Of a stretch of 16,478 nucleotides of DNA, positions 3,556 to 16,141 are shown in pieces. Position 1 is the first letter of the stretch; each line of letters begins with the position of its first letter. Made by a program: the position numbers and the translations under genes. Below the pieces are notes generated by a model that saw only the letters and a list, made by a program, of their open reading frames with translations, was not told where the DNA came from and ran no database searches. The DNA lies in the IMG/VR virus record IMGVR_UViG_2526164601_000013; one strand, 5' to 3'. The stretch is from a virus. Its lineage: Duplodnaviria > Heunggongvirae > Uroviricota > Caudoviricetes.

Positions 3556-3846
3556 TCATTGCCTTACTTCCATAAGCGCCCTATTAATAAACGCCGTCAT
3601 TGGATTTGCACATCCCCACCCCGTACCATCTGGATTTCTTTTAATTGGCTCCTTCTTCACTTTGCGTTTTGCATAAATAACCGTCTTCCACTTGCGCTCA
3701 ACAACACTCAAATGCCCTTGTTTCACCATATGCCTTGCTGCTTGAGCGATTCTGTTATTTGGTATTCCGGTGATCAGAGCTAATTCATGTGGGGAGAATT
3801 GTTCATGAGTTTTCAGATATTCCAGGATGATTTCTTTTCCAGTCAC
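3556..3846 (-). CDS. ren: Ren-like winged-helix DNA-binding protein
   Basis: Track ORF, 96 aa. Same size and position (just after the replication genes) as lambda ren, with an MTGKE start and an HTH-like segment. Family assignment is from memory. Confidence 0.5.
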   Translation of the reverse strand: MTGKEIILEYLKTHEQFSPHELALITGIPNNRIAQAARHMVKQGHLSVVERKWKTVIYAKRKVKKEPIKRNPDGTGWGCANPMTAFINRALMEVRQ

Positions 3847-4706
3847 AATCTGCTCCTGTAACTATCCCATGTAAACGCAAGGGTGCATCCGCCGCCATCA
3901 TTCATCCTGTCAATAACACGCTCACCAATGAATGCAGACAGTTCATCTTTGCTCTGGTTGCTAATCAGGATTGTTGGCTTCATACGCTCGTAGCGGGTGT
4001 TGATGATTTCGAACATGATCATCTTTTCCGCCTCGCTTCCAAACTGCACACCAACCTCATCGATAATTAGCAGGTCAGGTTTAGTGAACTGTCGGATCAC
4101 TTCATCCTCAGTGCGGGTGGAGTTTTTCGACCATGTTGATTTATATTCTCTGGCAATTTTCAGCGCCGTTGTGAAAATAGCTGAGCTTTGATGTTCCGTA
4201 ATTGCGTGCCGGGCGATAGCCAGTGCAAGATGATTCTTTCCAGTACCAGGCTTTCCACACATAACCAGCCCACCGCCTTTCTGTAACCTCTCAGGCCATT
4301 TGCTGGCGTATGCCTGACACACCCTGAGCACTCTCTTTGCATCGTCGTTGACTGGCTCGTAGTTCTGTAGTGTGCAACCCTTGAATCGTTCAGGAATATC
4401 AAGATTATTCAACAGAAACTCGACATTGCGCTTACGTGATTCCTCGTCGATTTTAATCTTCTCTGCCTGTAGCCGAATAAGATCATCTCTCATGCATTCC
4501 GGGCATTCGCTAGGTCTTGAAGCAAACTTAATTGGCCCAGTCGAGTAACGGTTACGCTGCTCAAACTCACCATGTTTTTCACAGATGCCAGTGCCAATTT
4601 CTACAGCTGTATGCTCGATAGCAATTGGCGGAGAACTCAATTCTGCAAGTTTTTTCTCCAGTTGGGAGATCTTTTCATCCAGCGTCATGTTCACTCCTGC
4701 GCCCAT
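3843..4706 (-). CDS. Replication protein, DnaC-type helicase loader (AAA+/IstB-like ATPase) with an N-terminal Cys-rich domain
   Basis: Track ORF, 287 aa. Walker A GKPGTGKNHLALAIA, Walker B LLIIDEVG, sensor region and ISNQS motif as in DnaC/IstB. Overlaps the O-like gene stop. Occupies the lambda P position. Confidence 0.85.
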   Translation of the reverse strand: MGAGVNMTLDEKISQLEKKLAELSSPPIAIEHTAVEIGTGICEKHGEFEQRNRYSTGPIKFASRPSECPECMRDDLIRLQAEKIKIDEESRKRNVEFLLNNLDIPERFKGCTLQNYEPVNDDAKRVLRVCQAYASKWPERLQKGGGLVMCGKPGTGKNHLALAIARHAITEHQSSAIFTTALKIAREYKSTWSKNSTRTEDEVIRQFTKPDLLIIDEVGVQFGSEAEKMIMFEIINTRYERMKPTILISNQSKDELSAFIGERVIDRMNDGGGCTLAFTWDSYRSRL

Positions 4707-5557
4707 GAAGGCATTTCAGTTTGTCCGTAATCTTTGGTGGCAAAGTTTTCCTGCATAGCTCGATGCTGCGGACTCGGTTGAGATTTCCCCTTTGGAGTCT
4801 TGGGCTCAAAAATCCCCTGCCAACCACTGGCGATGCTCTGGTTTATAATTTCTTCAGGTGTATATCCCTTCTCCAGACTTCTGCTTAGAACGTTGATAGC
4901 CTGAGTGACACTTTGCTTAGACTTGATCGACTTACCTATCTCCTTGCGATAGGTAACCCACGACAACCATGTTTCTGCCGATAACCAATCAGGCAACTCT
5001 GTTTCTAGCGGGTCGAACTTCTGAGAAACTTTTTTGGGGGATATAGGGGGTTTATTAATATTTTCTTTTGTCTTTAAAGAATGTCTTTTGTGTGTCTCTA
5101 ACTTCGAGACATTGAGTGTCTCTAACTTCGAGACATTGAGTGTCTCTAATTTGGAGACATTTTTTGTCTCTAACTTCGAGACAAAGTTGCTAACTTGGAG
5201 ACACTTGCTGAATTGCCACGCAGATACCTCCCTGTTTACACCGATTTGATTTCCATCCATAAACAGGCAATTCATTGAAATCAGTTCTTTTTTAGCCTTG
5301 TTAACATTCTGCCTTGACAGTCCTGTTAACTGAGCAATTTGCTCATCGGCTATTCGATCTGTTTTCTTATTGAAGCCATATGTTTTCCGGACGTAGGCCA
5401 GCATAACTTTCAACTGGCGAGCGGTTAAATCGGCACTTGCGATAGCTTCCAGCAGCTCGTTAGCGAATCTGGTGTAACCATCATCGATATCAGCCACTCT
5501 TCGCTCCTGTTCAACAGGTTCACTCTTCGGCAGGTAAAATACTTCAGCCAGGCTCAT
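4691..5557 (-). CDS. O: Replication initiator, lambda O-like, with iteron-encoded peptide repeats
   Basis: Track ORF 4691..5617, trimmed to Met MSLAEV, which has a GGAGG Shine-Dalgarno 7 nt upstream. N-terminal domain ERRVADIDDGYTRFANELLEA...KTYGFNKKTDRIADEQIAQLTGLS resembles lambda O. The SKLET(L/K)NV x4 repeats are encoded by the iterons. Confidence 0.85.
   Translation of the reverse strand: MSLAEVFYLPKSEPVEQERRVADIDDGYTRFANELLEAIASADLTARQLKVMLAYVRKTYGFNKKTDRIADEQIAQLTGLSRQNVNKAKKELISMNCLFMDGNQIGVNREVSAWQFSKCLQVSNFVSKLETKNVSKLETLNVSKLETLNVSKLETHKRHSLKTKENINKPPISPKKVSQKFDPLETELPDWLSAETWLSWVTYRKEIGKSIKSKQSVTQAINVLSRSLEKGYTPEEIINQSIASGWQGIFEPKTPKGKSQPSPQHRAMQENFATKDYGQTEMPSWAQE
5040..5202. 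repeat. Putative origin of replication: four 17-bp iterons with 24-bp periodicity plus a partial fifth, and an adjacent AT-rich region
   Basis: GTCTCTAACTTCGAGAC at 5094-5110, 5118-5134 and 5166-5182; variant GTCTCTAATTTGGAGAC at 5142-5158; partial copy to 5202. Each unit is itself an inverted repeat (GTCTC...GAGAC). AT-rich tract at about 5040-5093. All lie inside the O-like gene, as for ori-lambda. Confidence 0.7.
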
Positions 5558-6188
5558 TTCCAACCTCCGCATCAAAGCATTGGGCTTCAAGAGACTTAAC
5601 CATCGCCACACTGCCATCTGTATTAATAACTATCGATGAGTTATATTTGCTTATCAGTTGCTTCGCGTAATCAATTCCGGCGCGAATAAGGAAATTTTTC
5701 ACCGCAGGAAGATGACCAACTACACTACCCATACCTTGCTCTATAAGCTCATCATTAAGATCAAGCTCATTTTCATGGCGAAAAGAAATGAATGAGTCGT
5801 AAATTGCGTATTCTGCCGTCTCGCCATTTCTTTCAGGGCCAACCAGCGCCCTTATTTCATTTAGAGATTCAGAAAGCTCATTATCTTCAAGCTTGAAAAA
5901 CTCTCGATTATCACTAAGCCTCTCTTTTGCAAAGGCTTTATGAATGAGTTTTTCATCTGATGCGGGATTATTTGAATGAAAGGCTGCTATCACCTTAAAT
6001 GGCTTAGGAACGCCAGTAGAGGCTGAAATTTCTTTAGCCCTAACTTCTGGTGAATGCTTAGTCATCCCAATCTTATAAATTCCTGGCATGCACTCATTCG
6101 AAAGCACATAAACAAAGCCATTTGATTTAAAATCATCTGGCACCTTCATGCTCTTCAGAACCTGGAATTTGTCATTTTCGTATGTCAT
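5544..6188 (-). CDS. T5orf172 / GIY-YIG-like domain protein, putative nuclease (214 aa), inserted between cII and O
   Basis: Track ORF. AGGAG Shine-Dalgarno 5 nt upstream of the ATG. N-terminal segment FVYVLSNECMPGIYKIGMTKHSPEVRAKEI ... NREFF fits the GIY-YIG-like T5orf172 pattern as I recall it. The C-terminal ~110 aa are unassigned. Confidence 0.65.
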   Translation of the reverse strand: MTYENDKFQVLKSMKVPDDFKSNGFVYVLSNECMPGIYKIGMTKHSPEVRAKEISASTGVPKPFKVIAAFHSNNPASDEKLIHKAFAKERLSDNREFFKLEDNELSESLNEIRALVGPERNGETAEYAIYDSFISFRHENELDLNDELIEQGMGSVVGHLPAVKNFLIRAGIDYAKQLISKYNSSIVINTDGSVAMVKSLEAQCFDAEVGNEPG

Positions 6189-6222
6189 AATTACTCCTGT
6201 GGATTGATCCAGTCTTTCTACA

Positions 6223-6501
6223 TCAGGCCTCGAAGAATTCGCCGTTCTTCGGGGCTTTTTCTTTTGTCAGCATTCTGGCTACTTTCTTAGCCAGTTCCGC
6301 CAACTCCTCGTCTTCAACACCCCATTCAAGAACAGCCAGAAGCATTCCCATTTTTGGGATGAAGCTGTCTTTCCATCGCGAAATTTGCGATTCATTAATC
6401 CCTAACGCGTCGGCAACCTTTCGCTGACCACGTACAGCAATTCGATTCAGGATGTTGCTTGTAATTGCATTCGCTTTCTTGCGAGTACTTGTAAGTTCCA
6501 T
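6223..6501 (-). CDS. cII: Transcriptional activator cII-like
   Basis: Track ORF 6223..6588, trimmed to Met MELTSTRKK, which has an AAGGA Shine-Dalgarno. QISRWK...IPKMGMLLAVLEWGV closely resembles lambda cII (SQISRWKRDWIPKFSMLLAVLEWGV). Lies downstream of cro and nutR. Confidence 0.8.
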   Translation of the reverse strand: MELTSTRKKANAITSNILNRIAVRGQRKVADALGINESQISRWKDSFIPKMGMLLAVLEWGVEDEELAELAKKVARMLTKEKAPKNGEFFEA

Positions 6502-6559
6502 ATGTAAGTATTTCCTTAACAAATAAGAAGTTATGCGCATCAACTTATGCGCGTTGTAT

Positions 6560-6602
6560 TCCCGCATTTCGGCGGGAATGAGGACCATGACTGTTAAAGA
6601 GC
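6560..6602 (-). promoter_or_regulatory. nutR site: boxA and boxB hairpin
   Basis: Read on the minus strand: boxA GCTCTTTAACA (plus 6592-6602) and boxB hairpin TCCCGC-CGAAAT-GCGGGA (plus 6560-6577). Both elements are identical to the nutL copies. Confidence 0.65.
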
Positions 6603-6610
6603 GGTGTTAC

Positions 6611-6835
6611 TTATGCTGCCTGATTCGGTTTTGGAAACAGGTGTGGCAAATCGGGGCGAATTTCGTAAGCCTTGATCTGCCCTCCAGTGGCGTTAACGAT
6701 GGCGGTAACTTTCTCTGGAGAGACCAACCCGCCTTTCAGCCATTTGTGTACTGCTGGCTGCGTTACACCACACTTGTCGGCAAGGCGCTTTTGGCTACCG
6801 ACAATTTTCAAGGCTCGTTGAATTACTAAATTCAT
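6611..6835 (-). CDS. cro: Cro-like repressor (HTH)
   Basis: Track ORF 6611..6856, trimmed to Met MNLVIQ, which has an AAGAGG Shine-Dalgarno 6 nt upstream. HTH segment GSQKRLADKCGVTQPAVHKW. Divergent from cI across the operator region. Confidence 0.7.
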   Translation of the reverse strand: MNLVIQRALKIVGSQKRLADKCGVTQPAVHKWLKGGLVSPEKVTAIVNATGGQIKAYEIRPDLPHLFPKPNQAA

Positions 6836-6859
6836 GAGCATACCTCTTGTGGTCATTAC

Positions 6860-6946
6860 TTATAACCAAAGATAACTCAAGTTATAAAAAATAGCAATAA
6901 CCTTTGTTATTTTACTTTGGATAACCGTAGTTATAGATTTGTGGGT
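6860..6946. promoter_or_regulatory. OR operator region with divergent pR/pRM: three 14-bp palindromic operators ATAAC-N4-GTTAT
   Basis: ATAACTCAAGTTAT at 6872-6885, ATAACCTTTGTTAT at 6897-6910, ATAACCGTAGTTAT at 6921-6934, spaced 24-25 bp centre to centre, between cro and cI. Confidence 0.6.
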
Positions 6947-7654
6947 ATGAAAACATTCGCAGAAAGACTAAATGCAGCCATGAGCTCAGCAGGGGTATCA
7001 CAATCACAGCTTGCTGACATGGTTGGAATATCTCAGCCAGCCATACAGAAGATGTCGTCCGGTAAAACAAACGGATCTCGCAAGATGGTTGAATTAGCCA
7101 ATGCTTTAAAAGTGCGTCCTGAATGGCTTAGTTCTGGTATTGGTGAAATGAGGGATGGTGCACATGAAGAACCATCCAATGTCCGTGATTCATCTTTAAA
7201 AGCTGTGGTATGGGAAGACATTAAAAGAAACGATGACGAGTTTGTTGCGTTGCCTCTTCTTAACGTTTCGCTTTCAGCTGGAAGCGGTAGCTGCGAGCTA
7301 GAGGAATCATCGGAGTTCTCTTTGGTTTTCAGAAAGCACTATCTGAAAAAGATGGGAGTATCTGAAAGATCAGCCAAGCTAGTTAGGGTTGTAGGGCAAA
7401 GCATGGAACCAACGCTTCACGATGGCGATGTTGTTGGTGTTAACACGCAAGATACCACAATCAGAGATGGTAAAACCTACGCTATTTGCCAGTCTGATTT
7501 GTTACGAGTAAAAACATTAATCGCCACCCCTACATCGGTGATAATCAGATCAATAAATCGCGAAGAGTACCCGGATGAAGTAATGGATAGAGATGAATTT
7601 CATGAAACCGTAAGGATTATTGGCAGAGTATTCTGGTCGTCTCATAGTTGGTAA
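6947..7654 (+). CDS. cI: Prophage repressor cI-like (N-terminal HTH, C-terminal LexA/S24 autopeptidase domain)
   Basis: Track ORF 6917..7654, trimmed to Met MKTFAERL because the upstream part overlaps operator 3. HTH segment GVSQSQLADMVGISQPAIQKM. S24 motifs GQSMEPTLHDGDVVGV (Ser) and LRVKTL (Lys). Confidence 0.85.
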   Translation: MKTFAERLNAAMSSAGVSQSQLADMVGISQPAIQKMSSGKTNGSRKMVELANALKVRPEWLSSGIGEMRDGAHEEPSNVRDSSLKAVVWEDIKRNDDEFVALPLLNVSLSAGSGSCELEESSEFSLVFRKHYLKKMGVSERSAKLVRVVGQSMEPTLHDGDVVGVNTQDTTIRDGKTYAICQSDLLRVKTLIATPTSVIIRSINREEYPDEVMDRDEFHETVRIIGRVFWSSHSW

Positions 7655-7694: not shown

Positions 7695-7991
7695 ATGGAA
7701 TTTCTGATAGTTTTTGTTGTTGTTTTGGTCATCATTCTTTTTGTTTTGCTAAGCATTAGTAAAAAGCTATCTCAAATGATTGAACATAGCTCTAATCGTG
7801 CAAAAGAAGAAGAGCATATAATTGATATAAAAGAGATTCTCTCTGATATAAAAATCACATTAGATGAAATAAAATACACAACAGATCTAATTGAACAGTA
7901 TAAAATACCAACCCCAAACGAGAGAAAAGCAATAGATCAATATCGTATTGACTTAGAAATCGACGAAATGCTAAGCAAAAGAAAAGACTAA
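7695..7991 (+). CDS. Small membrane-anchored coiled-coil protein (98 aa) downstream of cI; candidate exclusion/abortive-infection moron
   Basis: Track ORF. GGAGGG Shine-Dalgarno upstream. N-terminal TM helix FLIVFVVVLVIILFVLLSI, then a charged helical region. Strongly AT-rich codon usage. Followed by an intrinsic terminator. Confidence 0.6.
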   Translation: MEFLIVFVVVLVIILFVLLSISKKLSQMIEHSSNRAKEEEHIIDIKEILSDIKITLDEIKYTTDLIEQYKIPTPNERKAIDQYRIDLEIDEMLSKRKD

Positions 7992-9091: not shown

Positions 9092-9586
9092 TTAATAATT
9101 TGTCAGCGGCGGTACATATACAGGCTTAGGGTCTGGCGCTCTATACATCCGGTATTCATTCTTACAGCGAGGACATGAATGCACAAAGAACCCATTAGAT
9201 TTTATAGTAACCGTGCTTGGTTGAAGTATCGATATTTTATGTTCGCCGAAGCAATGTGCACAAAGGTTATGCTGCTGAATAGAAGGATCGGAATGACTCT
9301 TAGGTCGATACACGACAGAACCACCTTCAGTTGTATGAAGTTCATAATTCTCAGCTTGCACAACAAACATCTTGATTTTTCTATTTTCATCTCGAAGCTT
9401 CATTGCGATCTCCTTCTCGGCCTGATAAAGGCCAGAGAGCTCCGCATTAAGCATCTGTAAGTCAGTTATTCTTTGGTGTAGATCACCAATAGCTTTAGCG
9501 ATAACAGCATCGTCTCTGGTTTCTTTTATTGTCTTCAGCAGATCATAAGCCTGTTTCGCGGCAGTTATACCAGATAACACATCCAT
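9092..9586 (-). CDS. Hypothetical protein, 164 aa: N-terminal coiled coil plus C-terminal CxxC...CxxC zinc-ribbon-like domain; gene B of the cassette
   Basis: Track ORF, antisense to the pL operon and convergent with gene A. Cys motifs CAHC and CPRC about 20 residues apart. AT-rich. No family recognised. Confidence 0.55.
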   Translation of the reverse strand: MDVLSGITAAKQAYDLLKTIKETRDDAVIAKAIGDLHQRITDLQMLNAELSGLYQAEKEIAMKLRDENRKIKMFVVQAENYELHTTEGGSVVYRPKSHSDPSIQQHNLCAHCFGEHKISILQPSTVTIKSNGFFVHSCPRCKNEYRMYRAPDPKPVYVPPLTNY

Positions 9587-10257: not shown

Positions 10258-10361
10258 TACGAATAAGCACTGTGTATTCATTCCAACGAGTGAATACACG
10301 GAGCAATGTCGCTCGTAACTAAACAGGAGCCGACTTGTTCTGATTATTGGAAATCTTCTTT

Positions 10362-10388
10362 GCCCTCCAATGTGAGGGCGATTTTTTT
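10362..10388 (+). terminator. Rho-independent terminator (tL1-like) in the pL operon
   Basis: Stem GCCCTC / GAGGGC (10362-10367 / 10374-10379), loop CAATGT, then GATTTTTTT. Ends 12 nt before the ATG at 10401. Confidence 0.55.
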
Positions 10389-10400
10389 GACGGAGGAAAT

Positions 10401-10712
10401 ATGAAATTACGTGTCTGGCATATCCCGCAAGTACCTATGAAACCGTTCATTGCAGAAGTGGCAAGTGTTGAAGAGGGTGTTCGCCTGATGGGCGCACTGG
10501 CTGATTATGACGCCTTTCAGTATGACAACAACATCAAGCCTGATTACTGCAATGCTAACGGCCTTGAGATGTGGGATGAGAGCCTTACCGATGAAGATTT
10601 ATCAGAGGTGGGGCTTACTGATCGCTGGGTGGATTGGTACAGCGAATGCCAATGTTACGACGACCCACGTAAATATCTCGAAAGCCTGAAAGAAGAAACA
10701 TCAGCCGCCTAA
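10401..10712 (+). CDS. Hypothetical acidic protein, about 103 aa
   Basis: Track ORF 10347..10712 begins at a TTG inside the terminator. Start moved to ATG 10401 (MKLRVWHIPQV), which has a GGAGG Shine-Dalgarno. Confidence 0.5.
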   Translation: MKLRVWHIPQVPMKPFIAEVASVEEGVRLMGALADYDAFQYDNNIKPDYCNANGLEMWDESLTDEDLSEVGLTDRWVDWYSECQCYDDPRKYLESLKEETSAA

Positions 10713-15718: not shown

Positions 15719-15811
15719 TGTAGACTGGCCCCCTGAATCTCCAGACAACCAGTATCACTTATTTAAGTGATAGTCTTAATACTAGTTTTTAGACTAGTCA
15801 TTGGAGAGCAG

Positions 15812-16141
15812 ATGATTGATGTCTTAGGACCGGAGAAACGCAGACGGCGTACCACACAGGAAAAGATCGCAATTGTTCAGCAGAGCTTTGAACCAGGGAT
15901 GACGGTCTCCCTCGTTGCCCGGCAACATGGTGTAGCAGCCAGCCAGTTATTTCTCTGGCGTAAGCAATACCAGGAAGGAAGTCTTACTGCTGTCGCCGCC
16001 GGAGAACAGGTTGTTCCTGCCTCTGAACTTGCTGCCGCCATGAAGCAGATTAAAGAACTCCAGCGCCTGCTCGGCAAGAAAACGATGGAAAATGAACTCC
16101 TCAAAGAAGCCGTTGAATATGGACGGGCAAAAAGTGGATAG
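15812..16141 (+). CDS. insC: IS2 transposase OrfA (InsC)
   Basis: Track ORF 15767..16141, trimmed to Met [56 protein letters not shown] (HTH), the IS2 OrfA start as I recall it. Confidence 0.85.

Follow-up and report, generated by a model that had tools for sequence, protein, structure and literature searches.

A probable GIY-YIG nuclease cassette as an optional occupant of the cII-O junction of lambdoid phages

What does a gene that resembles a GIY-YIG nuclease do between cII and the replication initiator gene O of a lambdoid phage, and does it serve the phage or itself? The question is raised by a stretch of 16,478 nucleotides (nt) from the Caudoviricetes virus record IMGVR_UViG_2526164601_000013, a P22/lambda-like Escherichia coli prophage, which was analysed as a whole and is called the window in the following. 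Its minus strand carries, in this order, a cro-like gene (6611-6856), cII, an open reading frame (ORF) of 214 amino acids (aa) termed ORF214, O and a gene for a DnaC/IstB-like helicase loader; a gene for a cI-like repressor (6917-7654) lies divergent to this set on the plus strand. ORF214 begins with ATG and occupies positions 5544..6188 of the minus strand in the ORF listing of the window. The initial annotation, made from the letters alone, had described it as a gene with a good ribosome binding site (RBS) wedged between cII and O and overlapping the O start by about 14 nt. Both statements hold: the Shine-Dalgarno (SD) sequence AGGAG (6198-6194) is found 5 nt ahead of the ATG (6188-6186), and the stop codon (5546-5544) overlaps the O start by exactly 14 nt, counted from the real O start codon at 5557, the O frame being listed from 5617. 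The identical protein is annotated in RefSeq as 'GIY-YIG nuclease family protein' (WP_000220587.1), the corresponding PHROGs families, phrog_8430 and phrog_16524, are both labelled 'unknown function', and a second IMG/VR record (UViG 2778261214_000028) is 100% identical to the window over the compared regions, which are the ORF214 and O-body protein matches. A literature search retrieved no paper on ORF214 or on nucleases in the lambdoid cII-O slot, and a 2006 survey of GIY-YIG proteins does not mention orf172. As set out below, ORF214 is very probably an optional accessory GIY-YIG nuclease cassette; a role as a weapon or a homing-like element is proposed more tentatively.

ORF214 is a genuine gene rather than an ORF that arose by chance. 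It has 51 homologues, 27 of which are full-length at 55-97% identity. Synonymous sites are saturated between homologues (proportion of synonymous differences, pS, 0.63-0.88), and for the N-terminal as well as the C-terminal half, most comparisons give a corresponding nonsynonymous value (pN) of 0.07-0.28; both domains are under purifying selection. The N-terminal motifs from which a T5orf172-type fold had been predicted (GFVYVL, GIYKIGMT, R50 and NREFF) are all present, and searches with profile hidden Markov models matched T5orf172 (residues 24-112; 57.9 bits versus a gathering cut-off of 20; E 1.5e-15; profile positions 1-100 of 101) and MUG113 (residues 38-111; 59.2 bits versus 22.3; E 6.3e-16) well above the cut-offs. 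The predicted structure of ORF214 has the alpha/beta core fold of GIY-YIG enzymes, and its best structural match is Slx1, a structure-specific nuclease. By score, fold and motifs, ORF214 is assigned to the T5orf172/GIY-YIG superfamily. The residues Y27, Y38, R50 and E96 are invariant in 37 of 37 aligned family members (33-97% identity), so that the catalytic Arg and Glu positions, on whose retention the initial annotation had made its proposal depend, are kept. By motif and spacing, these four residues would represent the GIY, YIG, Arg and Glu positions of the catalytic type: Y38 and R50 are 12 residues apart and R50 and E96 46, the equivalent distances in I-TevI being 10 and 48. The mapping comes from motif and spacing and not from a residue-level structural alignment; an hhalign comparison with I-TevI was uninformative.

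The gene is part of a sharply bounded cassette of 680 nt, which comprises ORF214 and the opening 15 codons of O, whose 5' end is divergent, and which stands in place of a 52-nt segment of cassette-less phages. Nine cassette-bearing loci (the window, phage CurroJimenez_Bas106 and seven Escherichia coli prophages) were compared with seven cassette-less loci, and the boundaries are identical across all of them: the left junction lies within the conserved block ACTGGATCAATCCACAGGAGT and the right junction at GAACAGGAGC (5512-5503). Phage N7, whose cII is 100% identical to that of the window at the aa level and whose O body is 97% identical at the nt level, has no ORF214. N7 and the window are homologous up to and including AGGAGT and the two opening codons, ATGACA; the match is then lost and is picked up again at GAACAGGAGC (window position 5512). 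In N7, O starts at the RBS and ATG that are used by ORF214 here and has the lambda-type N-terminus MTNTAKILNFGRGNFAEQE, whereas O of the window starts 632 nt downstream (ATG 5557 versus 6188) with the different N-terminus MSLAEVFYLPKSEPVEQE; the window has MSLAEVFYLPKSEPV at the N-terminus where the cassette-less allele has MTNTAKILNFGRGNFA. The O proteins of cassette-bearing loci share AE(I/V)F.(F/L)P, the cassette-less lambda type has AKILNFG, and the 52-nt segment differs in sequence from the cassette-linked O 5' end. Base 6192, which is located 4 nt before the ATG, is A in nine of nine carriers and C in all seven fully sequenced cassette-less loci. The O start codon at 5557 has its own new SD sequence, GGAGG (5568-5564), inside the last ORF214 codons. 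ORF214 thus takes over the RBS and ATG that serve O in cassette-less phages and hands O a new RBS together with a divergent N-terminus of 15 codons, and the 14-nt overlap suggests that the two genes are translationally coupled. An ACAGGAG repeat at both ends of the cassette was considered as a target-site duplication and rejected, as it also flanks the cassette-less segment. The GC content dips slightly, from 0.43-0.47 in the flanks to about 0.39-0.41 in the cassette, and this was not counted as evidence of foreign origin.

The comparison of cII-O junctions that the initial annotation had suggested reveals the gene in some related phages and prophages and its absence from N7 and others. The cassette was found in 19 of 5426 complete E. 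coli genomes, all 19 copies being annotated as intact genes, and in one phage of INPHARED. The accompanying O allele is present in 46 E. coli genomes, 27 of which have no cassette; among 70 loci with this O allele, 35 carry the cassette, 30 do not and five could not be classified. ORF214 hence shows a presence/absence polymorphism at one site between otherwise near-identical genomes. In three pairs of loci (L062/L069, L066/L070 and L065/L072), the cI and cro proteins are identical and the ORF214 gene is present in one member only; carriers and non-carriers occur in both O sub-lineages and with both DnaC-like alleles (about 29% apart), and the difference between the O bodies of a carrier and a non-carrier can be as small as 0.1%. 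The cassette adjoins at least five cII alleles, which are 33-53% divergent. In an analysis of linkage disequilibrium over 63 IMG/VR and genome loci, the association (r2) between the cassette and single-nucleotide polymorphisms of the right flank was 0.59 at the junction, 0.27-0.47 at about 270 nt and at most 0.15 past 500 nt. This decay within about 500 nt is compatible with co-conversion and also with ordinary recombination. Furthermore, this O type also occurs joined, at an unchanged right junction, to a second cassette allele (70% identical in aa, 60-80% in nt), and at that junction the identity jumps to 88-97%. Matched backgrounds, decay of association and a second allele at the same junction therefore show that exchange, gain or loss of the cassette has taken place repeatedly and among many backgrounds, by way of two junctions that are short and fixed. 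In E. coli ET776 (NZ_CP100909.1, hit H79), there are two cassette-matching places, one of which was inspected.

These data also bear on the idea that ORF214 is a core replication accessory factor required by O-type initiators. The gene always adjoins an initiator gene, to which it is apparently translationally coupled; however, it is missing from the viable phage N7, from the 27 E. coli prophages with the same O allele mentioned above, about half of the prophages with that allele, and from lambda-type junctions in 1740 genomes. A universal accessory of replication, which had been named as the finding that would speak against a mobile gene, is therefore rejected because cassette-less alleles exist, and we regard it as highly improbable.

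Neither a same-strand terminator nor a convincing promoter was found between cII and O, and because of this and of the gene order, ORF214 is expected to be transcribed early from pR, together with O, during lytic growth and to be silent in the lysogen. This expectation matters for a further explanation, according to which ORF214 is a prophage nuclease for anti-phage defence or superinfection exclusion that is expressed in the lysogen, like PD-lambda-1/SNIPE or PDC-S57. PADLOC matches ORF214 to PDC-S57 (E 4.5e-29; residues 21-113 to profile positions 3-94 of 212, which is not full-length) and to PD-Lambda-1 (E 4.6e-12; residues 23-113 to profile positions 355-450 of 496), and PDC-S57 proteins are of similar size and have an N-terminal T5orf172 domain. 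The shared part is the homologous T5orf172-type GIY-YIG nuclease domain, which alone aligns; it has been proven to be a nuclease in SNIPE/PD-lambda-1 (10.1101/2025.11.03.685801). SNIPE is a host defence protein of about 490 aa that is anchored in the membrane and has an N-terminal transmembrane segment, DUF4041 and a C-terminal nuclease domain, whereas ORF214 is a soluble protein of a phage lytic operon, with neither DUF4041 nor a transmembrane segment detected in it. Expression in the lysogen is disfavoured because of the operon position, as the gene is part of the repressed pR operon, where it is flanked by cII and O, has no convincing promoter of its own and shares its translation signals with O; we consider this explanation unlikely.

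The only strong terminator between cII and O is on the opposite strand and consists of a 14-bp stem (6225-6257) followed by a T-run to 6267. It belongs to an antisense RNA unit that has persisted despite the insertion and which we take to be the counterpart of lambda pO/oop. The -10 hexamer of this unit, CATAAT (6186-6191), overlaps the ORF214 start codon, and its -35 hexamer is TGGAAT (6163-6168), formed by ORF214 codons, in place of the TTGAGT that O codons provide in N7. By replacing the -35, the cassette may change the regulation of oop and cII, and the 5' end of O could have been freed from the promoter constraint, which might explain its divergence. Could ORF214 then be a catalytically inactive DNA-binding or regulatory protein that modulates O, the origin or the expression of oop and cII? 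The domain was reportedly first described by Iyer et al. in 2002 as a DNA-binding domain of viral regulators, the cassette does replace the oop promoter -35, and the relative of Salmonella phage S107 has Leu where the second Tyr is expected. However, a Tyr/Tyr/Arg/Glu set at GIY-YIG spacing that is invariant in 37 members would not be expected without catalysis, and because of these invariant residues, an inert regulator seems still a little less probable than a defence protein.

A putative nuclease at this place recalls several known systems. Free-standing T5orf172 genes are regarded as homing endonucleases that lie beside essential genes at recombination boundaries, and 87% of those described carry CapR, DUF723 or DUF4397 zinc-finger DNA-binding domains (Barth, Dunham & Seed 2023, PMC10448857). 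ORF214 resembles these genes of ICP1, T5-like and further lytic phages in domain family, free-standing organisation, proximity to an essential gene, location at an exchange boundary and sporadic occurrence; it differs from them in that they usually carry zinc-finger repeats while its own C-terminal domain has none (no CxxC-type motif is present in the sequence), and in that it belongs to a temperate lambdoid phage and, family-wide, to one fixed slot, unlike the T5orf172 homing genes of lytic phages. Like T4 Seg/Mob and I-TevI, ORF214 combines an N-terminal GIY-YIG catalytic domain with a C-terminal extension and is intergenic and free-standing, and the sequence of the neighbouring gene differs between cassette-bearing and cassette-less alleles; unlike in these proteins, no NUMOD, helix-turn-helix (HTH) or zinc-finger module was found. 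Odn of ICP1 (T5orf172 and RepA_N) is likewise a phage T5orf172 nuclease connected with replication origins and replicon competition. Its specificity comes from the DNA-binding domain of a captured initiator, whereas the C-terminus of ORF214 has no similarity to O or other initiators: capture of an initiator domain was rejected, as hhalign gave a probability of 1.3% for the C-terminal profile versus O and of 0.3% versus the MARSRNIKPGFF initiator, and phmmer retrieved no initiator.

Our preferred reading, to which we assign a probability of roughly 0.45, is that ORF214 is an early-expressed endonuclease directed against rival genomes without the cassette, in a competitor-directed or homing-like manner. 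The cassette would move by recombination and encode an active DNA endonuclease of the T5orf172 class, which would be made from pR together with O in lytic growth and not in the lysogen. By family, and since SNIPE shows that this domain type is active, ORF214 would cut DNA, and its preferred substrate would be co-resident or co-infecting lambdoid genomes without the cassette, cut at the lambda-type cII-O junction or close to it. Rivals would be harmed by these cuts; with homologous flanks, repair from the carrier genome would copy the cassette in and produce a homing-like drive, although homing itself is something that we infer. The selfish gene of the initial annotation is upheld in part: the nuclease domain and the optional cassette are in its favour, whereas no sequence-specific DNA-binding module could be recognised and the slot also has occupants that are not nucleases.

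Several results weigh against this preferred reading, beginning with the second half of the protein, which the initial annotation had left unassigned (about 110 aa) and which received no assignment from searches of about 100 residues in Pfam, PDB profiles and structures. It is predicted to consist of short helices, a long helix (160-182), a beta-hairpin (184-198) and a terminal helix. Its predicted local distance difference test (pLDDT) value is about 90 in the whole protein versus 74 when modelled alone, and in the model it seems to pack on the nuclease core. A phmmer search against 1.8 billion representatives revealed no relative of this domain outside its own family; two giant repetitive proteins that were matched are spurious, as Pfam shows CARDB-type repeats in them. 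No recognisable sequence-specific DNA-binding module was found in ORF214, and Pfam gave no match to CapR, DUF723 or DUF4397; as in GIY-YIG restriction enzymes, the fold itself could provide DNA recognition. Moreover, release from the overlapping pO promoter, and not immunity of the target site, could be the reason why the 5' end of O diverged. Of the 5426 E. coli genomes, 1740 have the lambda-type empty junction, yet the cassette occurs with a single family of O alleles; many empty junctions and a single O allele family are not the pattern of an efficient invader.

The remaining points of this kind come from a comparison of relatives at 33-97% identity from about a dozen enterobacterial genera (sources were Klebsiella, Pectobacterium, Pantoea, Enterobacter, Mixta, Lonsdalea, Tatumella, Dryocola, Providencia and Morganella), from Proteus phage Brookers and Salmonella phage S107, and from 40 IMG/VR contigs. 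Every relative lies directly upstream (-73 to +131 nt) of an ORF in the initiator position on the same strand, and all of them start at the conserved junction ...CACAGGAGTAATTATG. At least four classes are represented among the adjoining initiators (PF04492 O, an HTH_36 type and a further two that Pfam does not match), and the gene upstream encodes cII, YdaT or an HTH_39 protein. Identities within the family and among the initiators are discordant: members that are 63% identical adjoin unrelated initiators, and members that are 50% identical adjoin initiators that are 79% identical. This fixed position with intact frames across deep divergence is equally what one would expect of a useful accessory gene that has long been resident. 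In the 80 loci examined with an initiator of the MARSRNIKPGFF type, the slot is occupied by a T5orf172 gene in 57, by an HNH endonuclease gene in 10 and by a gene without functional assignment, phrog_30464, in 13. The HNH protein (266-270 aa; phrog_16986; Pfam HNH, E 1.1e-13; example L281 477-1289) is unrelated to ORF214 in its catalytic fold and occurs in this sample only with the MARSRNIKPGFF-type initiator; like ORF214, it is encoded directly upstream of the initiator and has an N-terminal nuclease domain with a C-terminal extension, here of 100-180 aa. The phrog_30464 protein has 134 aa (example L305 897-1301), and the same junction ATG can serve in E. coli as the start of a DUF2740 gene or of various small genes (hits H131 and H133); HNH, phrog_30464 and DUF2740 occupants all appear to start at this conserved ATG. 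Nuclease genes are known to occupy exchange boundaries beside essential phage genes (PMC10448857), a pattern that two unrelated nuclease families alternating at one site fit, and this alternation speaks for the preferred reading. The cassettes that do not encode nucleases share both slot and start junction with the others, which shows that the junction is also a general mosaic point.

The strongest rival of the preferred reading is nearly as probable: ORF214 could be a replication-linked accessory nuclease that benefits the phage and is not selfish, its mobility being the ordinary shuffling of lambdoid modules. Produced along with the initiator, it would promote replication of the phage itself, its targets being replicons of the host, of plasmids, of satellites or of rivals, or branched intermediates of replication or recombination. 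In about 60 loci, genes of this family open the replication module, with any initiator class and any upstream gene, both domains have been under long-term purifying selection, and 19 of 19 E. coli copies are annotated as intact; the best structural match, Slx1, is structure-specific, and Odn illustrates that T5orf172 nucleases can be domesticated against rival replicons. On the other hand, the gene is dispensable, since about half of the otherwise identical phages, including the isolated N7, do without it, and the C-terminal domain is not similar to O or to another initiator class.

The C-terminal tails of a group of relatives, clade B, are also relevant to this rival. In most clade B relatives (225-250 aa), the C-terminus reads GIYGPxxP...F, and in several it is ...SDDSDIPF, ...PDFDDAPF or ...VDEPIPF (examples are L010 5001-5693, L018 2944-3660, L021 2968-3675 and L023 2971-3678; proteins P0030, P0034, P0038 and P0039). 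The C-terminal tip of the E. coli single-stranded DNA-binding protein (SSB) is DFDDDIPF, and by this likeness, the clade B tails suggest contact with the replication and repair proteins that bind the SSB tip. They favour a beneficial nuclease with such partners, but ORF214 itself, a member of clade A, has no SSB-like tail. A combination of these ideas, in which a nuclease made in stoichiometric amounts with the initiator is a weapon of replicon competition and a gene drive in a temperate phage, delivered in many relatives to replication or repair machinery by SSB-like tips and cutting rival lambdoid or satellite replicons at the conserved cII-initiator junction or at forks, with conversion of homologous rivals as a by-product, is speculative and improbable as a whole.

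If ORF214 were a non-specific accessory nuclease, the finding would be ordinary. Homing-type nucleases have, however, been studied almost only in lytic phages, and the cII-O slot offers a clean two-allele system, with cassette and empty site each near 50%, in a well-understood module of temperate phages and with culturable phages for both alleles (CurroJimenez_Bas106 with the gene and N7 without it). With it, one can test directly whether the mosaic exchange of replication and immunity modules among lambdoid phages is driven by nuclease genes, which target a T5orf172 nuclease without a zinc finger has and which role the new C-terminal domain plays.

Table 1. Features of the ORF214 locus in the window, with coordinates, strand and basis
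Feature	Position	Strand	Basis or remark
ORF214, coding sequence including stop codon	5544..6188	-	ORF list, domains, homologues, pN/pS
Nuclease domain, residues 24-112	5853..6119	-	Pfam T5orf172 PF10544 / MUG113 PF13455
Family-specific C-terminal domain, residues 113-214	5547..5852	-	
Presence/absence cassette, 680 nt (ORF214 and first 15 codons of divergent O 5' end)	5513..6192	-	
SD AGGAG and ATG of ORF214	6186..6198	-	O start site in cassette-less phages (N7, lambda-type)
cII	6223..6588 (ORF as listed)	-	Pfam Phage_CII E 2.4e-42
Replication initiator O, 288 aa	4691..5557	-	Pfam Phage_rep_O E 5e-36
Four 24-nt iterons of the origin, located within O, consensus TTGAGTGTCTCTAACTTCGAGACA	5088..5183	.	
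DnaC/IstB-like helicase loader, next replication-module gene after O	3843..4706	-	profile search
oop-like antisense RNA unit	6163..6267	+	terminator prediction; promoter hexamers read from sequence

Two of the neighbouring genes call for comment. The start of cII is likely the ATG at 6501, because the Pfam match begins at residue 30 and the RefSeq homologue has 279 nt. O has 288 aa in the window versus 280-282 aa in CurroJimenez, N7 and RefSeq prophages, which is consistent with one iteron unit more or fewer. Rfam gave no match in the window and NCBIfam no useful one. In a Klebsiella aerogenes locus (L004 5634-5700), an in-frame ATG right after the stop codon of the nuclease gene encodes MNTAEILNFPGFQPEKIRSNR ahead of the called initiator start; a lambda-O-like N-terminal peptide seems to be carried there on a differently built initiator body.

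Elsewhere in the window, a 98-aa ORF (7695-7991, plus strand) directly follows the cI-like repressor gene, in the position of rexAB. With a hydrophobic helix at its N-terminus and a coiled region that is charged, it matches nothing in Pfam or PADLOC and is a candidate for an exclusion gene expressed in the lysogen. A Cys-rich ORF of 164 aa (9092-9586, minus strand; CxxC ... CxxC), also without a match in Pfam or PADLOC, is opposed to the surrounding genes of the leftward operon. A homologue of the superinfection-exclusion protein gp17 of P22 is encoded at 10347-10712 (plus strand; Pfam GP17, E 3.4e-53), and at the right window end (15767-16141, plus strand), a putative orfA of an IS3-family transposase was recognised by eye. 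In a related prophage of E. coli B1_2, an IS3-family element lies just after O and replaces the loader gene (L003 9843-11056), and in strain TST3, the loader gene is disrupted by ISKpn26. Finally, a gene for a NUMOD4-domain protein and an HNH endonuclease gene (L063 1-6 and L064 1-460) adjoin ninB in some of the same prophages, which therefore carry several homing-endonuclease-like genes.

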